Assembly: GCF_000172995.2 (NCBI RefSeq)
Contig: NC_014729.1
Span: forward strand, 2,340,001 to 2,372,000
Length of the DNA: 32,000 nucleotides
Source of the DNA: Halogeometricum borinquense DSM 11551
Lineage (GTDB): Archaea > Halobacteriota > Halobacteria > Halobacteriales > Haloferacaceae
Reading direction: 5' to 3'
Shown here: positions 13,795-29,557 of the stretch, piece by piece
Position numbering within the stretch: position 1 is the first letter of the stretch
Layout: each line of letters begins with the position of its first letter
The notes under the pieces: model-generated
Told to the model about the DNA's origin: nothing
Database searches by the model: none
What the model saw: only the letters and a program-made list of their open reading frames with translations
Program-made: the position numbers and the translations under genes

Positions 13795-13932
13795 CCCCGG
13801 TACTTCAAGGGTTCCGGAACGCCGTTACGGCGCGTCTTGCCGTCTCTGACGGTCGAACAGACGACGCTTTGTATCAACTGTGATAGTTTGTACCGCGGGT
13901 TTTTACGCGTTCCTCACAAAGTTGGGAGCAGC

Positions 13933-14103
13933 ATGAAAACGACGCGGAAGGGGATGCGAGAGGGAGAACTGGAGAAAGATACGTACGACAGATTAACCTG
14001 CGCCGAGTGCGGGGAATCGCTCAAGAAGCGGAACGACCCGGACGAGGTGTTCTCAGTGCGTATCTGTCCGACGTGCGAAACCGAGTGGAAAGAACTCAGA
14101 TAG
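13933..14103 (+). CDS. small zinc-ribbon protein (CxxC ... CxxC)
   Basis: MKTTRKGMREGELEKDTYDRLTCAECGESLKKRNDPDEVFSVRICPTCETEWKELR (56 aa). The TATA-like GGTTTTTAC lies about 26 nt upstream of ATG 13933. Confidence 0.5.
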   Translation: MKTTRKGMREGELEKDTYDRLTCAECGESLKKRNDPDEVFSVRICPTCETEWKELR

Positions 14104-16541: not shown

Positions 16542-17468
16542 TTACTCGGCGTCGGATGTCGCATCCGAGTCGTCCGCCGACTCACGGAAAGCGTCGATAG
16601 CCGCGCGGTACCCCGTTCGGTACGTCGGATACGCAAACTCGTAGCCGAGTTCACGCAGTCGGTCGTTCGAACACCGCTTGCTCGTCAGAATGCGCCGACG
16701 AGCGGCCTCCGAAAGGTCCGGGTCGTCCAGTCGTTCCTCCTTGGTCCGTTTTGGCGGATGCGAGACGCCGCACTCGTCGGCCAGCCAGTCCGCGAACGAC
16801 CATTTGTCCACGGGTTCGTCGTCTACAACCAGAACCACGTCGTCGCGGGCGGCGTCGGCTTCGAGAAGGAATCGGACGGCACCGGCGGCATCGTCGCGGT
16901 GGACCATGTTGAGATAGCCCTCCGTGACGGGACCGGTAAGATATCTGTCGAGTCGGTACCGGTCCGGGCCGTACAGACCGGCAAACCGTGCGACTGTTCC
17001 GTCGATACCCGCCGCTGACGCGTCTTCGACGGCAACCCGCTCGGCTTCAGCGAGAACGCGCGTCTTGTCAGTCGTCGGGTCAAGCGACGTCTCCTCGTCT
17101 ACCCAGCCGCCGCCGTGATCGCCGTAGACGCCCGTCGAGGAGGTGTACACGAGTCGGTCAGGTTGCGACGCTCGTCCGCCATACTCGTCGATGACGTTCT
17201 GAAGTCCTTCGACGTAGACGCGCCGAGCGGCCTCGGCACCGCGCCCGCCGGAACTAGCAGCGAACACCAGCCAATCGGCGTCCGGAAGCGGCGCGAGAGA
17301 ATCGGGATCGGTCACGTCCGCACGAGCGGGCGAGAACCCAGCGGATTCGACCGCCGCGAGGCCGTCATCGGAGCGACGGACGCCCGTTACGTCGTGACCG
17401 CTCTCGGCCAACTGACGGCCGAGTTCGAGACCGACGTAGCCGCATCCGAGTACGAGTGCGTGAGCCAT
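16542..17468 (-). CDS. NAD(P)-binding SDR / NAD-dependent epimerase-dehydratase family protein
   Basis: The N-terminal Rossmann motif is ALVLGCGYVGLELGRQL, with YTSSTGVYG further in. The protein is 308 aa. Confidence 0.85.
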   Translation of the reverse strand: MAHALVLGCGYVGLELGRQLAESGHDVTGVRRSDDGLAAVESAGFSPARADVTDPDSLAPLPDADWLVFAASSGGRGAEAARRVYVEGLQNVIDEYGGRASQPDRLVYTSSTGVYGDHGGGWVDEETSLDPTTDKTRVLAEAERVAVEDASAAGIDGTVARFAGLYGPDRYRLDRYLTGPVTEGYLNMVHRDDAAGAVRFLLEADAARDDVVLVVDDEPVDKWSFADWLADECGVSHPPKRTKEERLDDPDLSEAARRRILTSKRCSNDRLRELGYEFAYPTYRTGYRAAIDAFRESADDSDATSDAE

Positions 17469-17900
17469 CTATCGGTCGTTTCGCTCGGCGATGTAGCCGT
17501 GGATGGCTGCCAGTTGTTCGAGCGTCATCGACGTTCGACCCTCAAGGGCCTGCTGTACCTCCTGTCCGGAGAGGTCCAACGTCACGTTCGAGGCGATGGT
17601 GTCCACGTCAAGCACGCCCGTCGTCATCCCCATCAGGAGGTGATCGCGGAGTTCGAGGACGATAGCTTCGCTGTCGGGGTAGTCGTCGGAAAGTGCCAAC
17701 AGAGCCGCTGCATCCTCGACGTGCATCTCGGGGACTGCACCGTCCGCGAGGGCGGCAACCTGCGCTTCGTCTACGCCGGATTCAGCCGCCGCCGCTTCGA
17801 CGCCAACATCGTCCACGACGGTCCGAATCTGCGTTTCGTACGCCTCCCGCAACTCGGTCGTCGATAGCGCTGCTGGGTCGTCGGCCGCGTCGTAGAGCAT
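17469..17900 (-). CDS. conserved hypothetical acidic protein
   Basis: I place the start at ATG 17898-17900 (MLYDAADDPAALSTTELREAYE...). The upstream part of the track ORF overlaps the 3' end of the 1004-aa gene in another frame and is R/S-rich. Its TAG stop abuts the SDR ATG (TAGATG). Confidence 0.6.
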   Translation of the reverse strand: MLYDAADDPAALSTTELREAYETQIRTVVDDVGVEAAAAESGVDEAQVAALADGAVPEMHVEDAAALLALSDDYPDSEAIVLELRDHLLMGMTTGVLDVDTIASNVTLDLSGQEVQQALEGRTSMTLEQLAAIHGYIAERNDR

Positions 17901-17979: not shown

Positions 17980-20900
17980 TTACTCCCGCGGACACCGCCC
18001 CGTCGGCGTATCACATCGTGGCCCCGGTGCCGAACCGGACCACGCCTCGGATGTCTCGAAGGCGTCGCCGTCGATGTCTCCGACGCCGTTACCGCCGGGT
18101 GGAACCGCGGCGACGACGACGGTCCGTAGCTCGAAGCCGATGCGTTCGTTCGATCCGATGGCCTCTCGACTTCCGTCACCGTCAACGTCCAAACGAACGA
18201 CGGACCCATCGCGGACGTACGTCGTCGGCACCGCACCGTCACCCGCCGAAACGGTAAAGCGAGCGTACGCACCGTGTGCTTCGACTACCCAGAGATTCGT
18301 CGTCGCGACCCACGGACTCATCGTCGGCGAGAGCGGAAGCCCCGCCGGAACCGCACCGAGCGTCCCGTTCAGCGCGTGACTCGTCAGGCGGTCCGCACCG
18401 CGGGAGGCCGCTTCCCGGCCGAGTTCTCGCACGAGCGTCCGCGTCCGAGTCGCGGTTCCGTTCACGGCCGCCTCCGAAACGCGAACCCGCGATGCTGTGG
18501 TCGTCTCGCGCAACTCGACACGGAGCGCAGTCGCCACGCGGTCCTGAGCCATCTCTCCGTCCAGATCCGCTTCCGTCGCTATCGCGGTCGCCAGTGAGTC
18601 GTTCGACGCGGCGACAGCACGTTGGCCGACGCCGTCCCAGTGGGCGAGTCCGGCGGCAACAGCATCTTCGCTCTCTGCGTGCGTCAGGTCCGTCTCGCGT
18701 TCGACCGTCGATGCGGCCGTCTCACGGACGGGAGCGAGCGAGTGCTTGACCTCCTTTCGGAGTTCGTTGCTTCGGCGGCGGAGCGTCGAATCGGATTGGA
18801 CGGCGAGCGTCCGGTCCGCGGCGACGAGTGCGCGCCCGGCAGTTCTGAGCGACACCTCACCGCCGGGACCGAAGATGTCACCGACGACAGCGTCAGCGAG
18901 GTCCCCGTACGGAAGCGTGAACAGGTTGGTGTTGCGCGCGGCGAGTGGGGTGTATGTGGCGTCGTCTGCGACACCATCGATGGCTCGTCCATCGACGCCC
19001 GACAGCGAGAGATACGCCGGGTCGCCGTCGGGGACGAACGCCGCTGAACTGTTCGACAATTCGCGGGTATCGGCGGTCGTCCGACTCGACAGACGGTCCC
19101 GCGTCGCCGTTGCGTTCACACCGCGCGAAGCGAGTGCGTCCTGAAGTCGGTCGTTCCGACCGGCGGCCTCGGCGGCCCGTTCGTCCAGTCGTGCGAGGAC
19201 CGTATCGAGATATGCCGCGCGTGCGGCGACACGAACCCGGTCTGCGACACCGTCGTACGTCGCCGGGGCATCGACCAGTTCCGCTCGCCGGTCGCGGAGC
19301 GCCGCCGCCAGTGTAGCTGCGGTGTTGGCGTGACCGGTGGCGGTTTCCTGTGCCGCGACGTCCACCGAGACGTTTCTGACCCGCTCACGGAGCGCTGCCA
19401 CGTCGGCGTACACCCACGCGCGAAGCGCAGACGGGCGGTCGGTTTCGGCGCGTGCGGGATCGTAATCCGCGCTACCCGTTACTGCTTGACGAGCGACGGT
19501 GTTCGCACCACCCCGAGCGGCGAGTTCGTCGCGCGCGAGACGGGCGACGGATTCGAGATTCGGTCCCGAAAGCGCCCCACCGCGTTCGAACAGCGGTTCT
19601 ACGGCGCGGTCCGGTCCCGGCAGCGACCGAAGCGACCCGACGACGGCGACGCGGACGCGGTACCGGTCGGTCCACTGCGCCGTCGTCGTTCGACTCGAGT
19701 GATTCGCCGCGCGCCACGTCCGAGTAACGGTGTGCCGGACGACGACTTGCCGCGTCGTCGTCTTGAACGCGCGTGCGCCGACGCCGACAGACGGCGGTGC
19801 TGCTGTCCCGCGATCAACTACGGAGACATCACTATCTACGTCTTCGGCGGCGAGCGACCACGACACGTCGGACGAATCAGGTGCCTCGGGCGCGGGACGG
19901 TGTCCCTCGTTTTCGTCGAGGACGTCGCTGACGACTGTCACGCTCGGCGTGTATCCGGTGCGAATGACCGAGTCAAGAGCCGTGTCGGAGGAATCATCGG
20001 TCCCGCGAAGGAACGCGAGAAACGCGTCATCTGCAGTTTCGTTGACGCCGACAGTGAGAGTTCCCGTCGGCATCGTAGTCGGTGTCGGTCGGGGGTTCGG
20101 ACTCGGTGTCGCAGAGACGAGTTTCTCGGTCGTCGATCCGCCAGCGACCGGGGACAGGAGGTCGGTAAGGCCGGTTCGGAGCGTCGCCGCACGAACACCT
20201 CGCTTGGCGTCGGGATCAACGCGGCCGAACGATGCACGCTGGGCGGCGAGGACGCCCGCGTTGGTCGAGAGTTCAACGTGGCGGTTGCCGAGGACGTTCT
20301 CGATTGGCGCACCCGCGTACTGACCGAGGGCGCGTGCCTGCGTGATAGCAAGGAGTCCTGCCGTCGTGCGACGCGCCAGACCGGGCGCATACACGGGCGA
20401 TTCGTTCAGTCGTCGCTGGTAATCGGTCGTCCGCGCGTGGAGTGCGAGGACGGGAACTGCGACGGTCACGCGGCGTGTCACTGTCCGGGTGGCGACCACG
20501 CGGTCCTCGTGAGTAGCGACGAGCGAGACGTTACTAACGGCGACTGTGAGAGCGCGACCCTCGTTCTCACTCGATACGGAGACGTTCCGAACCGCCGCAT
20601 CAAGACCGGCAGAGAGCGGTGGCAAGGTGGCTCTCGCTGTCGTCATCCCGCGACGATGTTCGACTCCCGAAAGCGCGTCACGGGCAGCGAGTGCGATCCG
20701 GAGCCGTAGATAGTTATGGAACGTTTCGTTCGGGCCGAGCGTTCGACCGACCGCGGAGTTCGCGGGTGTCGTCACGGGATCCCTCGCCGCCGCGCATGCC
20801 GCTTCGCGGACAGCGACCCGGAGCGCGGCAGTCGTCTCGGCGTCCACACGTTCCATGGCAACGTCTGTCGAACGGTCCACGACGCCCGTATCGGGCGACG

Positions 20901-20994
20901 CGAGCGACGCGGCAAACGTCGAACTGCCGACGAGAAGCAGAACGCCGACGAGCGCGAACGGAACGCGTCCGCGGTTGTCGTCTGCGAGGCGCAT
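17980..20994 (-). CDS. 1004-aa N-terminally anchored protein, last gene of the Tad/T4P-like locus (function unknown)
   Basis: The N-terminus is MRLADDNRGRVPFALVGVLLLVGSSTFAASLA (basic residues followed by a hydrophobic helix). The protein has many NxS/T sequons and a P/T-rich linker (SATPSPNPRPTPTTMPTGT). The C-terminus carries CDTPTGRC. The ATG overlaps the upstream stop (TGATG at 20992-20996). Confidence 0.75.
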   Translation of the reverse strand: MRLADDNRGRVPFALVGVLLLVGSSTFAASLASPDTGVVDRSTDVAMERVDAETTAALRVAVREAACAAARDPVTTPANSAVGRTLGPNETFHNYLRLRIALAARDALSGVEHRRGMTTARATLPPLSAGLDAAVRNVSVSSENEGRALTVAVSNVSLVATHEDRVVATRTVTRRVTVAVPVLALHARTTDYQRRLNESPVYAPGLARRTTAGLLAITQARALGQYAGAPIENVLGNRHVELSTNAGVLAAQRASFGRVDPDAKRGVRAATLRTGLTDLLSPVAGGSTTEKLVSATPSPNPRPTPTTMPTGTLTVGVNETADDAFLAFLRGTDDSSDTALDSVIRTGYTPSVTVVSDVLDENEGHRPAPEAPDSSDVSWSLAAEDVDSDVSVVDRGTAAPPSVGVGARAFKTTTRQVVVRHTVTRTWRAANHSSRTTTAQWTDRYRVRVAVVGSLRSLPGPDRAVEPLFERGGALSGPNLESVARLARDELAARGGANTVARQAVTGSADYDPARAETDRPSALRAWVYADVAALRERVRNVSVDVAAQETATGHANTAATLAAALRDRRAELVDAPATYDGVADRVRVAARAAYLDTVLARLDERAAEAAGRNDRLQDALASRGVNATATRDRLSSRTTADTRELSNSSAAFVPDGDPAYLSLSGVDGRAIDGVADDATYTPLAARNTNLFTLPYGDLADAVVGDIFGPGGEVSLRTAGRALVAADRTLAVQSDSTLRRRSNELRKEVKHSLAPVRETAASTVERETDLTHAESEDAVAAGLAHWDGVGQRAVAASNDSLATAIATEADLDGEMAQDRVATALRVELRETTTASRVRVSEAAVNGTATRTRTLVRELGREAASRGADRLTSHALNGTLGAVPAGLPLSPTMSPWVATTNLWVVEAHGAYARFTVSAGDGAVPTTYVRDGSVVRLDVDGDGSREAIGSNERIGFELRTVVVAAVPPGGNGVGDIDGDAFETSEAWSGSAPGPRCDTPTGRCPRE

Positions 20995-21872
20995 CAGCGA
21001 CCACCCTCCGATTCATCGCCCCACGTCCGGACAACGATTCTGACCTCACTCACGGAGACGGCGGCCGCAGCATCCGCGGGCGAGTCGTAGCGCGCCCGCA
21101 GATCAGACTCGACTCGCGGCGCGAGGGCGTCCGCAAGGCGCTGGTTCGCTACATCGGTGTCGGCATCGGCTATCGGGTCTTCGACGGAGACGTTCAGTGC
21201 TGCGGCGAGACGTGCGTAGCGGTACCGAACGAGCGTCGAAACGGGCGGGTCCCCGCGGAGAGCGAGGCGCGTTCGACTCGCTGGCGCAACCGTTTCGATA
21301 GTTTGCGCCGCGACGGCGTTCGAGAGCGACTCGAAGTCATCCGTCTCGTTTGCCGGAAGCGACTGCGTTCGCGTGGGAATCGTCAGCGTCGCCGCGTCCG
21401 TCGCGGCCGACTGCGGCGGAGACGCACCGACGGCGACGTGTCCTTCGACCGGTGCATCGGGGTAGGGCCGCCACGCGGCGTCGATTCTGAGACCGGTCGG
21501 CACAAGTCTGGCCGTGATGGCCTCCCGAACTGACGACCGGAAGTCGTCGCGTGCGTGTGTCACCGGCGTGCCGTCGAAACCGGCGGTGCCGACGGTAACG
21601 CGGGCGAGCAGCCCCGCAAGTGACCCGTGTGTCGTTCGCTCGAACTCCGGACCCGACGTTCGCCGGAAGTCGGCACCGCTCTCGTTCGCCCGCCGCGCAC
21701 CCGGCGAGAGCGAGTAGTTCACTGTCGCCGTACTGGTAGCAAGCACGTTCGCAACGGCATCTGAACGGCCGTCGTCGAGGGTCGGCTGCGACCCTGCATC
21801 GGCGGTGGTAAGACCGACGACGGCCGCCCCAAGGAGCAACAGGAACACCGCGGCGTCGAGGGTGGCGTTCAC
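20994..21872 (-). CDS. N-terminally hydrophobic protein of the Tad/T4P-like locus (function unknown)
   Basis: The GTG start at 21870-21872 overlaps the upstream stop (GTGA), with an alternative GTG at 21878. The N-terminus is MNATLDAAVFLLLLGAAVVGL. The track ORF extension upstream is R/S/P-rich and overlaps the preceding gene. Confidence 0.65.
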   Translation of the reverse strand: MNATLDAAVFLLLLGAAVVGLTTADAGSQPTLDDGRSDAVANVLATSTATVNYSLSPGARRANESGADFRRTSGPEFERTTHGSLAGLLARVTVGTAGFDGTPVTHARDDFRSSVREAITARLVPTGLRIDAAWRPYPDAPVEGHVAVGASPPQSAATDAATLTIPTRTQSLPANETDDFESLSNAVAAQTIETVAPASRTRLALRGDPPVSTLVRYRYARLAAALNVSVEDPIADADTDVANQRLADALAPRVESDLRARYDSPADAAAAVSVSEVRIVVRTWGDESEGGR

Positions 21873-22300
21873 GACCACACCACCACCGTCAGACGGCCGG
21901 GTTCGACCTGTCCGGGTGAGAGACGAACGCTCACGAGGCGACTCGCGCGGTCGGTCGCCTCCTGCGGGACGGCTGGACCGACGGTCCACACGTCGTCCGA
22001 GGCGGTGAGCGTAACGTTGAGACGGCGGCCATCCGGCCCGCGAGTCATTGCGTCGGGAAGTCGCTCGGCGTCTACCACGCCACCGTCGTCAATAACGTCG
22101 TGAACGCGGTCAAGCGTTGGATCAGCGACGGCTCGATCCTCAAGGAGTGGAATCGAACCACCGAGGACGGTCACATAGAGGCTCAGTCCTGCGCAGACGG
22201 CAAACAGCGCGGCCAATGCGGCGACGGGTGACGTTTGGGCGCGTGCCCGTCTCCGCTCGCCCGTCCGAGTAGCGCCGTCACGCGTCCACGAGGACAACAT
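21869..22300 (-). CDS. pilin-like protein (class III signal-peptide-like N-terminus) of the Tad/T4P-like locus
   Basis: ATG start at 22298-22300. The N-terminus ...GERRRARAQ/TSPVAALAALFAVCAGLSLYVTVLG resembles an archaeal prepilin motif: basic residues, a small residue plus Q, then a hydrophobic helix. It overlaps the upstream gene by 23 nt. Confidence 0.6.
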   Translation of the reverse strand: MLSSWTRDGATRTGERRRARAQTSPVAALAALFAVCAGLSLYVTVLGGSIPLLEDRAVADPTLDRVHDVIDDGGVVDAERLPDAMTRGPDGRRLNVTLTASDDVWTVGPAVPQEATDRASRLVSVRLSPGQVEPGRLTVVVWS

Positions 22301-22757
22301 CGACTCCCTCCCAAGTCGTTTTGCGGACGAGAAGCGTGCGGTCCACCTCGCGCCACGTTGCGTTGCTTGTGCGGGTGCGCGAATCGATAACGGCCTGTTG
22401 GAACGCCGCCGGCGAGTCGAAGACGGCCGATGGGTGCGCACCGTGAATCACGTCACGAAGCGGCGAGTCACCCGCCGGAACGGGTGTGACCGGAGCGAAC
22501 GCGAACGTCGCGTGCGCCGTCCCGGCGTCGTTTCGGAGTGCGAGACGGCGCGTTTCGAGTTTGACCGCCGTCGCGTCCAGCGGATGTTCGGCCGTCGATG
22601 CGTACTCGGTCGCCGCCACACGGTCTACCGTCTCAGCCGCCGCAGTAGCGTTCGGCGGTGGGGCTGTTGGGAGTCCAGACGCCGCGCCGACGAGGGCGAC
22701 GCCCGCAAGCGAGAGCCCCAGCCACGCGTACCACGAATCGAGGGGAACGTCGAGCAT
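22278..22757 (-). CDS. N-terminally hydrophobic protein, first gene of the four-gene accessory module (function unknown)
   Basis: 159 aa with N-terminus MLDVPLDSWYAWLGLSLAGVALVGAASGL and an NAT sequon. It is preceded by its own TATA core (22777-22789), 22 nt from the ATG. Confidence 0.65.
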   Translation of the reverse strand: MLDVPLDSWYAWLGLSLAGVALVGAASGLPTAPPPNATAAAETVDRVAATEYASTAEHPLDATAVKLETRRLALRNDAGTAHATFAFAPVTPVPAGDSPLRDVIHGAHPSAVFDSPAAFQQAVIDSRTRTSNATWREVDRTLLVRKTTWEGVDVVLVDA

Positions 22758-22776
22758 GAGCCGTCTGGCCGCGCTC

Positions 22777-22789
22777 CCGTATATAAACC
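22777..22789 (-). promoter_or_regulatory. promoter core GGTTTATATACGG (TATA box) upstream of the four-gene accessory module
   Basis: The 13-mer and its 22-nt spacing to ATG 22757 are identical to those upstream of the ATPase gene. The flanking bases are also similar (CGCG.C.CCGTATATAAACC on the plus strand). Confidence 0.6.
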
Positions 22790-22805: not shown

Positions 22806-24533
22806 TCAGAACACGAGTGCCGCACCACGGAACGCAGCGAGATACGCGGCCGTCGCTGAAAGGAGCGCGAGACCGACGCGGTAGCCGACGAGCGTTCGGT
22901 CGAGTCCTCGGTCGAGACCGGTCGCGAGGGTAGTCAACACAACCGCGAGAACGAGAACGTACGCACCGACGGCCGTGCCGAGGAGTTCGGGTCCGAGCGC
23001 CTGCGCCCCGTCTTCGACGAGTGCCGTGTCCGCGGCACCCATCCGCGCCGCCATTGCCACCGTGGCACCACCGACTAACGGCGCGAACAGGGCGGCAGTG
23101 TTCGAGAGCGTTCCCGTCACCGACGCCAGTTCGCGCCGGGCCTCACTCTCGACGCGGCGAAGTTCGCTGAGATGGTCGGCGGTGGCGACGACAGCGTGGC
23201 CTGCCGGTCGGCCTTCCGTCGCGGCCACGGAGAGCAGTGCAGCGGCCGCCCTCGTCCGCGGACTGGGAACGTCGGCGAGGACACCATAGCGCCCGAGAAA
23301 CGCCTCGCGGACGCTGACGCGGAGGCGGCGACGGACGCCCGCGGCGTCGGCGAACACCGCTCCTGCCGGGGTCGAAACGGCGTCCGCGGCGGATTCGAGT
23401 GCGACCTCGACAGAGTCACCAGCACTGACACGCCGACCAACCAGCGAGAGTACGTCGTCCAGACCCGATTCAACCTCGCGGACGCGTTCTCTGACCCGTG
23501 CCATCGGGTAGTAGCGTCCGACCAAGCCCGCTCCGACGCCTGTGCCGGCGGCGGTGAGCGCGTCGGCCCACGGGGCGACGGCTGAACCGACGAACCAGCC
23601 GACGATACCGCAGAGAACGCCTGCCCCGACCGCGGGGAGAGCGGACGACGGGACATCCGGATGGCTCGAATCGACGCGCGGCGGGGCGAGTGCGACCGGC
23701 CGCCGGAGCAATATCCACGCGCTCGCGGCGACGAGACCGAGCGGCAGAAGTAGATCATAGACGGCTACGAACGCCGCAGTCGGGACGGCGACACCGCCCG
23801 CACGGGCCGCCGGGAGGACGCCAACGAGCGCGAGTGGGAGGAGAACACCGAAGGCGTAGACGCCGGTTGTCGGGCCGCGAACGTCCGCCGCGAACGACGC
23901 GAGTTCGTCGCGCGTCCCGTCGAGGACAGCGTCGAGCGCGCGTTCTAACCCTCGCTCGCGTTCGTCCGGCTGTGCGTCGGCGCTGGCGAGAAGAAGCGAG
24001 ATAGCACGCTCCAACGCGGGGAAGTGGTCGCGCCACTCGCGTGCGAACGATTCGAATCCGGAGTTCGGCGTACCGCGGGCGCGACGGACGTGTTCTGCGA
24101 GACTGTCAGCCAGCGGTCCGTCGGCCGTGTGCGCGGCGAACGACGCGGCACGTTCGGGCGTTGGTCCGAGTTGCATCCGGAGCGTCGCGCGGCCGACAAG
24201 CGCAGGCGTCTCGCCCAGTGCGCGCGTCCGGCGGAGTCGGGCTGCGACGACCGGGAGTCGGTGAACCGCATGCGTTCCGACGAGTCCGATAGCGAGGGAC
24301 GCACACAGGCGAACAACGATCGGTGAGCGCGGTGCGAGTAGTGAAACGAACGCGAACGAGACGAGTGTGAGCGGGAGGCTCAACACGTACCCCGCTCGAA
24401 CGACCATTTCGGCGTCTGTGTCGCTGCCGAGATACGACAGCGCGGACCGGACATCCTCACCCGGTTCGACCGACCACGGATACACCTGCGCGAGCGACTC
24501 AACGAGATGGGAGCAATTCGACGGAGCAGTCAT
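22806..24533 (-). CDS. type II secretion system F-family membrane protein (TadB/TadC-, PilC-, FlaJ-like; two-domain)
   Basis: 575 aa with two blocks, each a cytoplasmic helical region followed by TM helices. The ATG overlaps the ATPase stop (ATGA at 24530-24533). This is the typical partner of a secretion ATPase. Confidence 0.8.
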   Translation of the reverse strand: MTAPSNCSHLVESLAQVYPWSVEPGEDVRSALSYLGSDTDAEMVVRAGYVLSLPLTLVSFAFVSLLAPRSPIVVRLCASLAIGLVGTHAVHRLPVVAARLRRTRALGETPALVGRATLRMQLGPTPERAASFAAHTADGPLADSLAEHVRRARGTPNSGFESFAREWRDHFPALERAISLLLASADAQPDERERGLERALDAVLDGTRDELASFAADVRGPTTGVYAFGVLLPLALVGVLPAARAGGVAVPTAAFVAVYDLLLPLGLVAASAWILLRRPVALAPPRVDSSHPDVPSSALPAVGAGVLCGIVGWFVGSAVAPWADALTAAGTGVGAGLVGRYYPMARVRERVREVESGLDDVLSLVGRRVSAGDSVEVALESAADAVSTPAGAVFADAAGVRRRLRVSVREAFLGRYGVLADVPSPRTRAAAALLSVAATEGRPAGHAVVATADHLSELRRVESEARRELASVTGTLSNTAALFAPLVGGATVAMAARMGAADTALVEDGAQALGPELLGTAVGAYVLVLAVVLTTLATGLDRGLDRTLVGYRVGLALLSATAAYLAAFRGAALVF

Positions 24534-26473
24534 CGGCGGACCTCGCGCACATCGGCCGCGGCGTTCGGAAGGTCATCGGGTCGCGTCTGGTCTGTTTCGG
24601 CGAGGTGCGAGAGCGTCGCTGTCCGGCGGTCGAGTGCGTCGAGTACGTCGGCGTACGATTCGTCGTGCCGGGCGAGCGCGGCGACCAACGAACTATCACC
24701 ACGCGTGACGACTCCAGTCTCTTGAATACCGTTGCCGTCGCGGCCGTAGAGCGTCTCGAAATGAACGCCCTCGTCGGTCTGTCGAACCTCGGCGACCGTC
24801 TCGACTCGCCTGTCGGAACCGTCACGAGTGCAGGTGACAACGAGGTCTGTCGCCGCGAACGACGATTCGGGGACGCCGAGGTCCGAGACGACCCGTTCGC
24901 GGACGGCTGCGGGCGAGTCGCCGTGAATCGTCCCGAGAACAGCGTGGCCGTGTGCGCCGACTCGCATCGCTTCGTAGAGGGCGCTGGCCTCGTCACCCCG
25001 AACCTCGCCAACGACGAGAGCGCCGTCTCCGAGCCGGAGCGCGGTACGGACGGCATCTGTCGGCGAAAAGGAACCGTCCTCACCGAGGTCGGTGTGGAGG
25101 GGTTGCACGTCGCGCCCGCCGTCTCTGAGCGCCGCGACCGGGAGTTCCGGGGTGTCTTCGACGGTGACGAGACGCGTCGCCGCCGGGAGTTCCCAGAGAA
25201 GAGAGCCAAGAAGCGTCGTCTTGCCCGCACCGCGCGTTCCCGCGACGAGGCCCGTCGCACCGCGTTCGACAGCAAACGAGAGAAACGCCGCCGTCTCGGC
25301 CGAGAGGGTCCCCGAAGCAACGAGACCGGGGAGCGTCCACGCTCGACCGTCGTGTGCGCGGAAGGCGAATCCGATGCCGTCGCTCGCAGGGGCGGTGACG
25401 CCAGCGACGCGGACGCGTGACCCGTTGGGCGCGTCGATCGCGGCGTCCAGTGCGGGCGACGCGCGGGAGAACCCGCGTCCGCTGGCGTGTCGGAACCGAG
25501 ACGCGAGCGCCGCGGCCCCATCCGGCGTGAGACGGACGTTCGTCCGGATACGCTCACCGTCGATCGCAACGCGTACCGGATTTGACGCAACCGGAGCCGA
25601 CGCAACCACGTCGGTCACTCGTGGATCAGCAAACAGGTCGTCGAGAACGCCGTTCCCGCGCGTGTGACGGTTGAGTACGTCCGTTAACGTCTCCACTGGG
25701 TCGTCGTCGTCCGCGACGTGCCGCACGGCTCGGCCGGCAGCACGCTCTCCGCCCTGCACGATTCCGCGCGCGAGACACTCGTGTGCCGCCGCCAGCGTCG
25801 CCGTCGCGTCTGCGTCGAGTTCGTGCGCAACGGGCGTGAGATGATACAGTCGGCCGTCGCCGGTCCGGTACAGACGAACCGTCGCGCCGGTATCAAGTTC
25901 TCGCCGGTCGAGGAGAGCGGCATCCGACGGAAGTCGCCGAGCGACACGGGAACGGGCGACTGACGGTCCCACGTAACTCCACAGGAGACTCTCGTAATCG
26001 TCTGCACGTTCGACACCCGCGGCAAGGCCTGTCTCGGCCGCGAGAGTCGCCACCGGTCCCGCCCGACCGGTTGCTCGCCGGACCGCATCTATCGGGTCTC
26101 GGGTGGCGCGTTCTGCGAGCGATTCGTCGTGGAATCCGACGCGTTCGGCGAACCGACCTGCCGCGAGCAAAACACCCGCAGCATCGTCGTCGTAGGTGCG
26201 TTCGAGACCGTCAGCACGGACGCGAACCACGTCCGCGTCTCGGTCCGCGAGTGCGCCAATGACGGTGGCACGGCACGCGGGAACGCCGGCGAGGTCACCG
26301 CCACCGGGACAGTCGGTCGCATCGACGACGAGCTCCGTCCGGTCTGTCGTCCGGCCGGTCGGCGTCTCGAACGAGTGTTGGCACCGGCAGGCGGATTCAT
26401 CGTCATCGGTGTCGGTATCGAGCGAGAGCGCCGAACCGACAGCGGCGATGCAGGCGGTGAAGTCGAGAGGCAT
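24530..26473 (-). CDS. type II/IV secretion system ATPase (TadA/CpaF-VirB11-PilB superfamily) with about 250-aa N-terminal extension
   Basis: Motifs present: Walker A GTRGAGKTTLL, Asp box VTVEDTPEL, Walker B ALVVGEVRGDEA and His box HAVLGTIHG. I place the start at ATG 26471-26473 (MPLDFTAC...), 22 nt downstream of a TATA core. The upstream part of the track ORF overlaps the preceding gene. Confidence 0.9.
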   Translation of the reverse strand: MPLDFTACIAAVGSALSLDTDTDDDESACRCQHSFETPTGRTTDRTELVVDATDCPGGGDLAGVPACRATVIGALADRDADVVRVRADGLERTYDDDAAGVLLAAGRFAERVGFHDESLAERATRDPIDAVRRATGRAGPVATLAAETGLAAGVERADDYESLLWSYVGPSVARSRVARRLPSDAALLDRRELDTGATVRLYRTGDGRLYHLTPVAHELDADATATLAAAHECLARGIVQGGERAAGRAVRHVADDDDPVETLTDVLNRHTRGNGVLDDLFADPRVTDVVASAPVASNPVRVAIDGERIRTNVRLTPDGAAALASRFRHASGRGFSRASPALDAAIDAPNGSRVRVAGVTAPASDGIGFAFRAHDGRAWTLPGLVASGTLSAETAAFLSFAVERGATGLVAGTRGAGKTTLLGSLLWELPAATRLVTVEDTPELPVAALRDGGRDVQPLHTDLGEDGSFSPTDAVRTALRLGDGALVVGEVRGDEASALYEAMRVGAHGHAVLGTIHGDSPAAVRERVVSDLGVPESSFAATDLVVTCTRDGSDRRVETVAEVRQTDEGVHFETLYGRDGNGIQETGVVTRGDSSLVAALARHDESYADVLDALDRRTATLSHLAETDQTRPDDLPNAAADVREVRR

Positions 26474-26492
26474 GGGGTCGATGGTCGCGTCT

Positions 26493-26505
26493 CCGTATAT
26501 AAACC
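26493..26505 (-). promoter_or_regulatory. promoter core GGTTTATATACGG (TATA box) upstream of the secretion ATPase
   Basis: On the minus strand, TTTATATA lies exactly 22 nt upstream of ATG 26473, directly after the stop of the preceding gene. The same 13-mer occurs at 22777-22789. Confidence 0.6.
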
Positions 26506-26976
26506 TCAGCCAGAGTAGGCACGCGAGGCGACCAGTACAGGACCATCCGCTGTCCGCCGAAGCGCGACCGAGATCGGTCGGTCGCCGTATCCGCGGAGGA
26601 CGATAGGACCGTTCGGTGTCCGGAGTGCGACCGGGAGCGAGAGCCGACGCGTTATTTCCGTGCCACCGGCCACCGCGTAGGTCACGACCGACCGGTTTCC
26701 CTGTCCGCCGGGTTGCCCACCGACAGCGACGTAATCGATACCTGCGCTCGTCCACGTCGGCGACGGGAGCGAGAACGTCACGGTTCGCGTCGGCGCGACA
26801 GCGGCGTCACTCGTCGCATCCGAACCGTACGCGAGCGCCGACCCGGCCGCCGAGAGTCGTTCGACGGAAGTGTCCACTCTCGTCGCCGTTCGGTCGGCCC
26901 GGGCGTCTTCGACCGCCGGAAGCGACGCACCGAGGACCGCGACAGCGAGGACCGCCGCGAGAACGACGCGAATCAC
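26506..26976 (-). CDS. single-pass membrane/secreted protein of the Tad/T4P-like locus (function unknown)
   Basis: The GTG at 26974-26976 lies 1 nt after the stop of the upstream coiled-coil gene. The N-terminus is MIRVVLAAVLAVAVLGASLPAV, followed by a soluble domain that looks beta-rich. Confidence 0.6.
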   Translation of the reverse strand: MIRVVLAAVLAVAVLGASLPAVEDARADRTATRVDTSVERLSAAGSALAYGSDATSDAAVAPTRTVTFSLPSPTWTSAGIDYVAVGGQPGGQGNRSVVTYAVAGGTEITRRLSLPVALRTPNGPIVLRGYGDRPISVALRRTADGPVLVASRAYSG

Positions 26977-26977
26977 G

Positions 26978-27451
26978 TCACAGCGCCTCGCGGAGGCGTG
27001 CGGCGAGAGAGTCCTCCGCCTCGTCCCCGTCGGTATCGCAAGCGGTGTCGTCACGGCGGTCCGCCACGTCGCCGACTGTCTCCGCGTCGTCCGGAAGGCG
27101 TTCGACGACGAGGCCGTCATCCTCGTCGTGCGCGGCGGCGAGTTGTTCGGCTATCGCAAGTGCGAGATCGGCGCGGCGTTCGACTGATTCGTTTACCGCC
27201 TGCACGCCGCCCAGGAGACCACGAACCGCCTCAAGTTCGGCCGACAGTTCGGACACACGCCGGTCGAGAGCCGCTATCGACTGTTCGAGATCCGCCACGG
27301 TCGTCTCGGACAGCGCTTCGGCGGCCTCGGTATCCGTGTCGGTACCCGACGCGTCGTTCGACGGTTGGTCGCGGTCGTCGTCAGTCAGAGCGCGTTCAAC
27401 GGCGTCGAGACGGGCTGCAAGCGTTGTGAGGTCGGTTTTGTCATCCGGCAT
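26978..27451 (-). CDS. acidic coiled-coil protein, first gene of the Tad/T4P-like locus
   Basis: ATG at 27449-27451 gives MPDDKTDLTTLAARLDAVERAL ... DLEQSIAALDRRVSELSAELEAVRGLL. It shows heptad-like periodicity and very acidic tails. The longer track ORF (to 27877) is antisense to cetZ and S/P/R-rich. Confidence 0.65.
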   Translation of the reverse strand: MPDDKTDLTTLAARLDAVERALTDDDRDQPSNDASGTDTDTEAAEALSETTVADLEQSIAALDRRVSELSAELEAVRGLLGGVQAVNESVERRADLALAIAEQLAAAHDEDDGLVVERLPDDAETVGDVADRRDDTACDTDGDEAEDSLAARLREAL

Positions 27452-27474
27452 GGGGCGACTGGTCCCGTCATGTG

Positions 27475-27482
27475 AAATAAAA
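27475..27482. promoter_or_regulatory. AT box (AAATAAAA / TTTTATTT) in the 76-bp divergent intergenic region; candidate shared TATA for cetZ and the pilus-like locus
   Basis: It is the only AT-rich element between 27452 and 27527. On the minus strand it reads GAGGTTTTATTT, 23 nt before ATG 27451, the same geometry as the two promoter cores below. Confidence 0.45.
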
Positions 27483-27527: not shown

Positions 27528-28613
27528 ATGAAGACCGTCCTGATAGGTGTCGGCCAGGCCGGCGGGAAGCTTACCCGCGAACTGGTTGACTTCGATGAAC
27601 GAATGGAGTTCGGCGCGGTTCTCGATGCAGTCGCCGTGAACTCCGCGAAGGCTGACCTGCGCGACATTCCGTTCGAGACGATTCTCATCGGACAGGACCG
27701 CGTGAAAGGCCACGGGGTCGGCGGCGACAACGAACTCGGCGCGGAAGTCATGCAAGCAGACAAGCGCGAGGTGCTCTCAGCACTCGACGGCCGCATCACC
27801 GCCGAAGCCGAAGCGATTTTCGTCGTCGCCGGACTCGGCGGCGGGACCGGAAGCGGTGGCGCACCCGTCCTCGTCAATGAACTCCAGCAGATCTACGACG
27901 TACCAATCTACGCTCTCGGCATCCTTCCCGGCGACAGCGAAGGCGCGATGTATCAGGTGAACGCCGGACGGTCGCTGAAGACCGTCGCTCGCGAAGCAGA
28001 TTCGCTCCTCCTCGTTGACAACGACGCGTTCCGGAGTTCGGGCGAGAGCCTCGAACAGGGATACGACGCGATCAACCGCGCTATCGCCCAGCGCGTCGGA
28101 CTCCTGTTCGCCTCCGGTGAGGCAGTCGAGGGCGTCGCAGAGAGTGTCGTTGACTCCTCTGAGGTCATCAACACGCTCCGCTCGGGCGGCATTTCGGCGC
28201 TCGGCTACGCCGCCGCTGAGTCCGCCGATAGCTCCGAGGGCAACATCAACACCGTGATGAGTACCACGCGGCGCTCTCTCCTCACTGGCACGAGCCTCCC
28301 CGAGGCGACAACAGCTGATTCGGCGCTCCTCGTCGTCGCGGGCGAACCGGACAAGATACCTCGCAAAGGCGTCGAGCGCGCCCGCCGATGGATCGAAGAG
28401 GAAACCGGAAGCCTCCAAGTTCGTGGCGGAGACTTCCCGCTGGATTCCGGACGCATCGCGTCGCTCATCCTTCTCGGCGGTGTCGAGCGCTCCGACCGGC
28501 TTGAAGCGTTCATGCAACGCGCAAAAGAGGCCGTTAAAGAAGCCGAAGAGACCGAAGAGCGCGAAGACCCCGCCGAGACGTGGCGGAACGACGAACTCGA
28601 AGACCTCATCTAG
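27528..28613 (+). CDS. cetZ: CetZ-family tubulin/FtsZ-superfamily GTPase
   Basis: MKTVLIGVGQAGGK (GxGxxG), AVNSAKADL, RVKGHGVGGDNELGAE, the T4 tubulin signature GLGGGTGSGGAPV, T7-like LLVDNDAF and an acidic C-terminal tail. The GGGTGSG form and overall pattern match the CetZ sequences I remember rather than FtsZ. Confidence 0.9.
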   Translation: MKTVLIGVGQAGGKLTRELVDFDERMEFGAVLDAVAVNSAKADLRDIPFETILIGQDRVKGHGVGGDNELGAEVMQADKREVLSALDGRITAEAEAIFVVAGLGGGTGSGGAPVLVNELQQIYDVPIYALGILPGDSEGAMYQVNAGRSLKTVAREADSLLLVDNDAFRSSGESLEQGYDAINRAIAQRVGLLFASGEAVEGVAESVVDSSEVINTLRSGGISALGYAAAESADSSEGNINTVMSTTRRSLLTGTSLPEATTADSALLVVAGEPDKIPRKGVERARRWIEEETGSLQVRGGDFPLDSGRIASLILLGGVERSDRLEAFMQRAKEAVKEAEETEEREDPAETWRNDELEDLI

Positions 28614-28639: not shown

Positions 28640-29035
28640 TGGCGTTCGAGAACCCGTCGAGACGGACTCGTCTGTGTCAGCGTGACCGATGAATCGAGAC
28701 GGATCAAGTGGCGGAGACGAGACTGTGCGTAAAGCGTGAGATAGCGAGCGGAGACGGGACACTGAGTGAACCGCCTCGGGGTCAAGTGGTTCGAGAGACT
28801 TCGTCTCTCGTCATCACGGAAATCTTTGATTTCCGTATGACTCCGAGGCTTCCCGTGGGTTAGTCGGACACTCCCACTCGACCATCGGCCTGATAGCCTC
28901 GAACGGTCGGTTGGGTCACGGTCGGGGCGTCCACGGCCCCCGATGCCCGCCGTCTCAAAGTCGCGAAGCGACTTTGCGGGCTGCACAAGAGCTCCGCTCT
29001 TGTGAACGTCGAACCTTCCGAACAACGGGAAGGCT
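28640..29035 (-). ncRNA. candidate TnpB omega-RNA (reRNA) scaffold / right-end region
   Basis: The position (3' end of tnpB and downstream) and the density of perfect 8-9-bp hairpins fit the known omega-RNA layout. The hairpins lie at 28924-40, 28956-76, 28984-29004, 29014-33, 28792-810 and 28817-35. The ends are not determinable by eye. Confidence 0.3.
28787..28845. repeat. twin-hairpin module, copy A (inverted relative to copy B)
   Basis: Hairpin 1 is cgagagac-ttc-gtctctcg (28792-28810) and hairpin 2 is cggaaatc-ttt-gatttccg (28817-28835). A 7-bp closing stem gcctcgg/ccgaggc (28773-79 / 28843-49) encloses both. Confidence 0.7.
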
Positions 29036-29557
29036 GTTGAGAGCAGGCACATTCCAATCGAGTTTCTTCACGCCTTTCACGGCGATGTTGACGCTTGCAC
29101 TACGGTCGCTGTGGTCTTGATGGGAACAGTCCTTGCACTTGAACCGCTTCTTGTTTCGGTTCGCACGCTCCGTATTCCCACACATCGGACACCGCTGACT
29201 CGTGTACTCGGGGTTAATCCACGCGGTCGGAATCTCCTTGAACGACGCCTTGTACGACGTATAGAACTGAAGGGCGCGGAACGGGAGGTGGTGCAAGCGT
29301 CGGTTCATCCGCGTGCCGTAGTCGATACTGTCGCGCATTTCTTTGAGGTCTTCAAAGACGATGCACGGCTTCTCGAACTGACGGCTCCACTCCACGATGT
29401 GACGACTCACCTTGTGGAGTCGGTCGCGGACAAACCGTTCTTCGCGCCCTTCGAGCGTGTCGTGGGTACTGTCTTTCCCCGCGTTCTGGACGCGCTTCCG
29501 CATCGTGAAGTAGCGGTGACGCTCGAACTTGATTTCGGGGAAGTCAATAACCAACAT
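28860..29557 (-). pseudogene. tnpB: tnpB (RNA-guided endonuclease, IS200/IS605 OrfB) remnant: 5'-truncated, possible 3' frameshift
   Basis: The remnant retains a RuvC-II-like IVFEDLKEM, the Zn ribbon CPMCG...FKCKDC and RuvC-III-like DHSDRSASVNIAVKG. The N-terminal WED/REC/RuvC-I half (about 200 aa) is missing. After the stop at 28955 the reading continues in another frame (RRRASGAVDAPTVTQPTVRGYQADG) down to 28860. Confidence 0.7.

Follow-up and report, generated by a model that had tools for sequence, protein, structure and literature searches.

Introduction

Haloarchaea carry several type-IV-filament loci each, and to our knowledge a function is known for only one or two of them. Makarova, Koonin and Albers (2016; PMC4858521) defined the 'subclade 4F' type-IV-pilus systems of Halobacteria, hybrids in which a crenarchaeal-type ATPase/TadC module is combined with euryarchaeal pilins and which include an S-layer-like or surface protein, an intracellular coiled-coil protein (arCOG07564), and a neighbouring FtsZ-family gene. 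In their Table S4, Haloarcula hispanica genes 2314-2323 are listed as arCOG07564, 10216, 01818, 01814, 04673, 05166, 06291, 02945, 04674, and 03095; arCOG10216 is labelled a predicted major pilin, arCOG04673, arCOG05166, and arCOG06291 are each labelled 'predicted pilin family protein', and arCOG06291 is marked FlaFind-positive. Brown and Duggin (2023; PMC9856176) described how the pilB2/C2 regulon adjoins cetZ2 specifically, in both Haloferacales and Halobacteriales, and suggested CetZ as a possible scaffold for the pilB2/C2 system. Subsystem 4F has since been listed with CetZ2 and an 'adhesin-like' arCOG02945 (Sivabalasarma and Albers 2026; bioRxiv 10.64898/2026.04.22.720090).

Here we describe four consecutive, overlapping genes of Halogeometricum borinquense DSM 11551, which encode members of the families DUF7283, DUF7285, DUF7284, and DUF7286, in that order. 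They lie within a 32,000-nucleotide (nt) stretch of DNA (contig NC_014729.1, positions 2,340,001 to 2,372,000 of the forward strand), referred to below in its full length as the window, with a G + C content of about 0.57-0.71. Together they make up the distal half of a conserved haloarchaeal subclade 4F (pilB2/pilC2) type-IV-filament-like locus, and the best explanation of the set as a whole, which we regard as probable, is that their products form a pilin-like priming, capping, or display complex of that locus. A preliminary description, made from the DNA sequence by itself, had treated the set as uncatalogued, which it is not: earlier papers and Pfam already cover the locus, the gene families in it, and the link to cetZ2, and our finding re-identifies a known locus. 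Added to the published account are signal-peptide statistics for each family, the conservation of the gene overlaps, a promoter signature shared within the locus, and the results of AlphaFold2 (AF2) modelling and Foldseek searches.

Identity and conservation of the locus

The four genes occupy the following window positions (protein lengths in amino acids, aa).

22278..22757, minus strand: DUF7283 (arCOG04673); ATG start, 159 aa; Pfam E 7.5e-55
21869..22300, minus strand: DUF7285 (arCOG05166); ATG start, 143 aa; Pfam E 5.4e-39
20994..21872 or 20994..21878, minus strand: DUF7284 (arCOG06291); GTG start, 292 or 294 aa; Pfam E 4e-90
17980..20994, minus strand: DUF7286 (arCOG02945, 'surface protein'); ATG start, 1004 aa, TAA stop at 17982-17980; Pfam E 0, full length

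Each protein covers its Pfam profile end to end, with scores of 185 bits for DUF7283, 134 for DUF7285, 303 for DUF7284, and 1133 for DUF7286, all above the gathering threshold (cut-off 27). NCBIfam holds no model for any of the four families. The full module runs DUF7310, DUF7311, PilB2 ATPase, PilC2 platform, DUF7283, DUF7285, DUF7284, DUF7286; divergent cetZ2 flanks it on one side, and DUF5791 and a sugar epimerase gene flank it on the other. In gene content and order the window locus equals the Har. hispanica locus of Table S4 row by row, and the protein sizes are also the same. The published accessory set, arCOG07564 and arCOG10216 and then, after the TadC gene, arCOG04673-05166-06291-02945, is present in the window in that order in the form of the Pfam equivalents. 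Because this synteny is identical to that of the published locus, the window ATPase was placed in subclade 4F.

The layout of the Haloferax volcanii locus is likewise identical to that of the window, and the window locus shows no differences in kind from the 4F loci of either species. By counting back from the Pfam HVO_0758-family gene, the H. volcanii equivalents of the four genes were assigned to HVO_0750-0753 and the whole locus to HVO_0746-0755. The former assignment is consistent with what the available part of a differential RNA sequencing (dRNA-seq) table, considered below, lists for HVO_0752 and HVO_0753.

A scan of species-representative genomes (one per species) gave 294 confirmed relatives of the DUF7286 gene, and the best 80 of the 294 were taken with 10-kb flanks and searched by tblastn with the window proteins. 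The order CetZ (opposite strand), DUF7310, DUF7311, ATPase, TadC, DUF7283, DUF7285, DUF7284, DUF7286 was kept in nearly all of the 80 loci, with a CetZ gene at the corresponding position in 62 of them. Protein identity ranged from 35 to 85% across many genera, and all genes of the locus were intact. DUF7286 has 361 homologues, the named ones all from Halobacteria; the window copy is 97% identical to its cluster representative.

Gene overlaps and inferred translational coupling

Successive genes of the set overlap by 23 nt (DUF7283/DUF7285), 4 nt (DUF7285/DUF7284, GTGA), and 1 nt (DUF7284/DUF7286, TGATG). The preliminary description had given the same four coordinates, strand, and overlaps, and a listing of open reading frames (ORFs) together with direct reading of the DNA bore these out. 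A second in-frame GTG of the DUF7284 gene, at 21878, yields the 294-aa form of the NCBI records, which is 100% identical to the DSM 11551 protein entry; with this start the overlap with the DUF7285 gene is 10 nt. GGAGG-like sequences lie upstream of the DUF7285 and DUF7286 starts.

All four starts could be placed in 52 related loci. The first overlap was found in 49 of these 52 (23 nt in 30 loci, 20 nt in 10), the second in 46 (10 or 4 nt), and the third in 49 (4 or 1 nt). From this arrangement we infer stoichiometric co-translation of the four proteins. Judged by their conservation among the sequences compared, the overlaps and the promoter described next are under selection.

Promoters and a shared signature

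The preliminary description had proposed a dedicated promoter at 22777-22789, and a TATA box, TTTATATA, is indeed located at 22787-22780, 30 nt upstream of the DUF7283 ATG. A TATA box about 30 nt before the start codon is the geometry of leaderless haloarchaeal promoters; given this spacing, a leaderless mRNA is therefore predicted for the set. In an alignment of 78 sequences the TATA box occupied positions -30 to -23, with T at -30 in 100% and T at -29 in 88%. The upstream 50 nt as a whole were strongly conserved: a G/A-rich GAG at -35 to -33 resembles a B recognition element, and a GC-rich element follows on the 3' side of the TATA box, with C at -11 in 89% of sequences.

The same arrangement precedes two other genes of the locus.

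27475..27482, minus strand: TATA box of the DUF7310 promoter, then CGGGACCA at 27467-27460; fits the composite pattern
26496..26503, minus strand: TATA box of the ATPase promoter, then CGCGACCA at 26489-26482; fits the composite pattern
22780..22787, minus strand: TATA box of the DUF7283 promoter, TTTATATA, then CGCGGCCA at 22773-22766; fits the composite pattern

The composite pattern consists of GAGG-TTTATATA 30-31 nt before the start, followed at about -17 to -9 by CG[C/G]G[A/G]CCA (CGSGRCCA), and lies before the starts of DUF7310 (27451), the ATPase (26473), and DUF7283 (22757). On the minus strand of the window the shared signature spans 27460-27482, 26482-26504, and 22766-22788. These three occurrences, solely at those starts, compare with 0.03 expected, a statistic that is partly circular because the pattern was defined post hoc. 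When a relaxed form of the pattern was applied to the 80 related loci, 190 matches were obtained on the operon strand versus 10 on the opposite strand. The motif stood directly before the start of DUF7283 in 55 of 77 loci, of the ATPase gene in 31 of 73, and of DUF7310 in at least 14 of 68, and in the 80 loci it was nearly restricted to these three sites. The CGSGRCCA box may reasonably be supposed to be the operator of a dedicated, locus-specific regulator, for which the conserved neighbour DUF5791 is a candidate.

The stretch from the TATA box to the DUF7283 ATG was also examined for a conserved hairpin. Single sequences often folded (mean z -1.08) and no RNAalifold consensus emerged; the best register paired 60% of cells compared with 56.7% in shuffles, and slid registers gave similar values. 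Because there was no consensus fold and pairing was near that of shuffles, the RNA-structure idea was dropped and the element was kept as a conserved sequence motif.

A set with a promoter of its own might be an independent cell-envelope operon, encoding for example surface glycoproteins, that merely lies beside pilB2/pilC2 and does not depend on them. The conservation of that promoter fits such an arrangement, as does the gap between the TadC gene and the set, which is 48 nt in the window, has a median of 66 nt in the related loci, and typically measures 32-90 nt. Adjacency and orientation, however, are kept in essentially all 80 genomes, across several haloarchaeal families, and the same promoter signature stands before the ATPase and DUF7310 genes; the signature common to all three promoters therefore argues for one regulon. 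DUF7285 furthermore carries a class III signal peptide (see below), and proteins of this kind depend on type IV assembly machinery. On these grounds we consider an independent operon improbable.

N-termini, signal peptides, and topology

In each of the four proteins the sole hydrophobic segment is N-terminal; the C-terminus has none. This agrees with the single N-terminal helix per protein in the preliminary description, and with its remark that DUF7286 lacks a C-terminal transmembrane anchor. N-termini were compared across about 70 genomes, with [K/R]-[G/A] directly before a hydrophobic helix of about 20 residues as the criterion for a class III signal peptide. The expectation that only the second protein, and perhaps the fourth, would resemble substrates of a prepilin peptidase held across these genomes.

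The clearest case is DUF7285, which begins with R-[G/A]-Q-x-x-P followed by the hydrophobic helix. R-[G/A]-Q was present in 31 of 33 aligned sequences; R20 was invariant among the 33, Q22 and P25 were at least 90% conserved, and the window protein reads R-A↓Q-T-S-P (arrow, cleavage site). By these residues the leader is a classic example of an archaeal class III signal peptide, and 'pilin' status is solid for DUF7285 only. DUF7286 begins D-x-R-[G/A]-R-[V/I]-P-F-A-L, with R8, P12, F13, A14, and L15 invariant in 15 sequences. The window protein has the R-G-R-VPFAL motif, kept in most lineages, and then the hydrophobic helix; an Arg at +1 of the putative cleavage site is unusual. The DUF7284 proteins of Haladaptatus and Haloarculaceae begin M-R-A-I-S-T-V or R-G-V-S-T-V.

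The other features that the preliminary description had assigned to the 1004-aa protein, more than ten NxS/T sequons, a Pro/Thr linker, and a CDTPTGRC pair, are all present. We counted 12 sequons, against 5.0 +/- 2.0 in shuffled sequences, six of them retained in more than half of 64 orthologues; a Pro/Thr-rich stretch lies at about residues 296-310; and Cys994 and Cys1001 make up the CDTPTGRC pair, a C-terminal Cys pair being found in 37 of the 64 orthologues. DUF7284 has five sequons, against 1.3 in shuffles.

A proposed priming, capping, or display complex

If the four proteins do form a pilin-like complex, their N-terminal helices would anchor them in the membrane, leaving the bodies outside the cell and probably N-glycosylated. 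The class III signal peptidase PibD would cut DUF7285 and in this lineage probably, or perhaps, DUF7286 as well. The set would then act like the minor-pilin or tip complexes of the bacterial type II secretion system (T2SS), type IV pili (T4P), and Tad systems, as a priming or capping complex on PilC2 powered by PilB2, and would expose the 1000-aa DUF7286 on the outside of the cell, perhaps carried by a short filament of another subunit. Overlapping stop and start codons would couple translation, such that the four proteins are made together in matched amounts, and the set's own leaderless promoter, with the signature common to the DUF7310 and ATPase promoters, would let it be switched on conditionally.

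The preliminary description had likened the layout to the TadE/TadF/TadG pseudopilin sets. The genomic context sustains a pseudopilin-set reading in so far as genes for a platform protein and a FlaI/VirB11-type ATPase adjoin the set, in a published 4F locus with three 'predicted pilin family proteins' and a 'surface protein'; the locus is of the archaeal type IV filament kind, however, and not a Tad system. As in Tad, the genes for the ATPase and a TadB/C-type platform are followed by those for a small set of proteins with N-terminal helices, the last member is much larger than the others, and the presumed role is to prime or tip a fibre. Unlike Tad, DUF7283, DUF7285, and DUF7284 matched no pilin or TadE family in a permissive Pfam scan (E <= 5), in agreement with the earlier statement that no sequence similarity to TadE/F/G was seen. 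The Tad pseudopilin leader is G↓xxxxE-Y, whereas that of the window is of the archaeal R-[G/A]↓Q type, and the leaders of the three smaller proteins lack the Tad motif. The large window protein contains no known domain besides DUF7286, and the two kinds of system also differ in phylogenetic origin, the window type having an archaeal clade 4 ATPase (PMC4858521). Overall, the earlier interpretation is partly supported, and it is essentially the published one.

The GspH-I-J-K complex of the T2SS and the FimU-PilVWX-PilY1 complex of type IVa pili are a plausible functional analogue, each resembling the window set in having four co-transcribed, translationally coupled subunits, one of them oversized. 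In contrast to those tip complexes, a recognisable prepilin-type leader is found in only one or two of the four window proteins, and Foldseek returned no match to solved pseudopilins. ArlF and ArlG (FlaF/FlaG) are similar in a different way, as proteins of a type IV filament machine that have a hydrophobic helix at the N-terminus, are not cleaved by the peptidase, and carry a globular domain outside the cell, but no similarity of sequence or fold to them was detected, and the window locus has no archaellins or other arl genes.

Structure models and remote homology

The AF2 model of DUF7284 (294 aa) had a mean predicted local distance difference test score (pLDDT) of 90 and a predicted template modelling score of 0.83, and shows a short membrane helix tethered, through a low-confidence stretch at residues 17-32, to an alpha/beta globular domain predicted with confidence. 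That of DUF7286 was partly confident (pLDDT 70), with several well-predicted domains. A type IV pilin has a long continuous alpha-1 helix packed on an antiparallel beta-sheet; this fold was not detected in either model.

Several results weigh against a complex of pilin-like subunits. In both AF2 models, a low-confidence stretch joins the N-terminal helix to the globular part in place of a continuous pilin-type alpha-1 helix. Foldseek searches with the DUF7284 model (PDB and BFVD) and the DUF7286 model (PDB) returned no match at E <= 0.1, and no pilin, pseudopilin, or archaellin. Comparison by hhalign of the four families, DUF7311, and the N-terminal domain of DUF7286 (MAFFT alignments of 49-77 orthologues) gave probabilities of 6.6% or less. 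Nor do the N-termini all conform. The window DUF7284, like that of other Haloferacaceae, starts (M)-V-V-N-A-T-L-D, with no [K/R]-[G/A] motif and no basic residue; DUF7283 has an acidic M-F-D-x-P-x-D-A-W-Y start (MLDVPLDSWY in the window) and no class III motif; DUF7311 begins M-[I/L]-R (M-I-R in the window) and then the helix, with no R-G/A cleavage motif among 49 orthologues; and the M-T-A-R-VPFAL start of DUF7286 in Haloarculaceae has no basic residue ahead of the putative cleavage site. A literature search found no experimental work on the locus and no paper naming HVO_0742-0754 in its main text. In the available part of the dRNA-seq table for H. volcanii (PMC4983044), the locus is represented solely by weak internal transcription start sites (TSSs) in HVO_0752 (673744) and HVO_0753 (676653), and that part, for standard growth, holds no primary TSS for HVO_0746, HVO_0748, or HVO_0750, nor between cetZ2 and HVO_0756.

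The best Foldseek matches for DUF7284 had E values of 0.28-0.79 (PDB and BFVD; best in PDB, E 0.79 with a template modelling score of 0.12), and the best for DUF7286 in PDB had E 0.13. TolC and SecB, which were among the top matches, were rejected (template modelling scores of 0.27 or less). The model suggests that DUF7284 may have a fold without a solved representative. Searches of PDB sequences with alignment profiles of DUF7285, DUF7284, DUF7283, DUF7286, and TadC gave nothing better than E 0.05, and all matches seen there for DUF7283-7286 and TadC were spurious.

The structural and N-terminal results speak for a second explanation, in which the proteins are static, uncleaved, N-terminally anchored accessory proteins, comparable to ArlF/ArlG or to PilN/PilO of bacterial T4P, and are not filament subunits. 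Around PilC2 they would build a scaffold that spans the envelope or S-layer and has DUF7286 outermost; only DUF7285, or a pilin from another locus, would polymerise. Of the five small N-terminal-helix proteins, three lack a class III motif, and their leaders are only 2-8 residues long; the AF2 tether between membrane helix and globular domain, the failure to detect a pilin-like fold, and the lack of detectable homology among the families or to Pfam pilin and TadE models point the same way. On the other side, the published profiles class arCOG04673, arCOG05166, arCOG06291, and arCOG10216 as pilin-family, with arCOG06291 FlaFind-positive; DUF7284 of several lineages has M-R-A↓I-S-T or R-G↓V-S-T; and a plain anchor would not call for a sequence as tightly constrained as the near-invariant R-VPFAL of DUF7286. 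A static scaffold is a serious possibility, though we think it the less likely of these two explanations, and a pilin-like complex remains our preferred reading.

Expression

The dedicated promoter of the preliminary description is strongly conserved but not established, as no primary TSS for the orthologous H. volcanii operon appears in the available part of the dRNA-seq table. The locus tags were not found in the accessible text of the ArcPP supplements, and the DUF names of the four families are used in no paper found. The set appears to be silent under standard laboratory growth, and its expression seems to be conditional. The missing primary TSS in that table would also suit a silent or decaying relic without current function. 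Against this, the genes are intact, 35-85% identity is retained, and the overlaps and promoter elements are conserved, which together therefore indicate purifying selection; a relic is very unlikely.

We also entertain, as a rather doubtful extension of these ideas, that the cetZ2-linked 4F module is a distinct machine derived from type IV filaments and not a pilus. Cleavable DUF7285 would combine with uncleaved, anchored DUF7283, DUF7284, DUF7311, and DUF7286, with folds unlike any solved structure, in a fixed surface organelle positioned by the CetZ2 cytoskeleton and switched by the CGSGRCCA operator of the three leaderless promoters.

Upstream machinery and neighbouring genes

The remaining genes of the locus and its flanks are as follows.

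27528..28613, plus strand: cetZ2-type tubulin-like gene, divergent, ATG at 27528; Pfam CetZ_C E 9e-66, Tubulin E 9e-29
26978..27451, minus strand: DUF7310, Asp-rich coiled-coil protein (arCOG07564), predicted cytoplasmic; Pfam E 4.6e-22; in Makarova Table S4
26506..26976, minus strand: DUF7311 (arCOG10216, published 'predicted major pilin'); Pfam E 5e-45
24530..26473, minus strand: PilB2-type secretion ATPase (FlaI/VirB11 family, arCOG01818), long N-terminal extension; Pfam T2SSE E 4.9e-19, above cut-off
22806..24533, minus strand: PilC2/TadC-type polytopic platform protein (arCOG01814), 575 aa, several hydrophobic segments; T2SSF by orthology
17469..17900, minus strand: DUF5791 (arCOG04674, published predicted helix-turn-helix regulator); Pfam E 2.4e-50
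16542..17468, minus strand: NAD-dependent sugar epimerase/dehydratase (arCOG03095); Pfam Epimerase E 1.7e-12

NCBIfam matches of the ATPase to TadA, FlaI, and VirB11 models were all under cut-off. The T2SSE match is confined to the C-terminal part of the protein, from about residue 350 of about 647 aa, and the N-terminal third or more is a Cys-containing extension, in keeping with the 'variable N-terminal domain' reported in ATPases of subclade 4F. By its own sequence the window platform protein matches nothing in Pfam or NCBIfam; Pfam T2SSF was matched by 16 of its 29 orthologues (best E 3.3e-7), and the family is highly diverged from bacterial GspF/PilC. No prepilin peptidase gene was found within the window.

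DUF5791 and the epimerase gene hold the same downstream position in Har. hispanica and H. volcanii. Farther downstream in the window are genes for a DHH phosphoesterase, an aldo-keto reductase, and a zinc-finger micro-protein of the HVO_0758 type (13837-14103, plus strand, start probably near 13933; PF23137 E 3e-31). The HVO_0758 homologue lies five genes downstream of DUF7286 in both the window and H. volcanii, where deletion of HVO_0758 alters swarming and biofilm formation (PMC10716476). On the other side of the locus, between cetZ2 and a phosphodiesterase gene, a 200-aa ORF (28955-29557, minus strand) contains a Cas12f1-like TNB/transposase zinc-ribbon domain and looks, from its sequence, like a remnant of a truncated TnpB of the IS200/IS605 type. 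The corresponding interval of H. volcanii is occupied by a GCS2-family gene, with no TnpB-like ORF.

Significance

The cetZ2-linked 4F locus is widespread, with confirmed matches in 294 species-representative genomes, and its conservation extends to the gene overlaps and promoter elements. For work in Haloferax volcanii it now offers several handles: a true class III subunit, a shared promoter signature, and models without a solved structural relative. If it were known what DUF7283-7286 build, the link between the archaeal tubulin-like cytoskeleton and the cell surface would become clearer.

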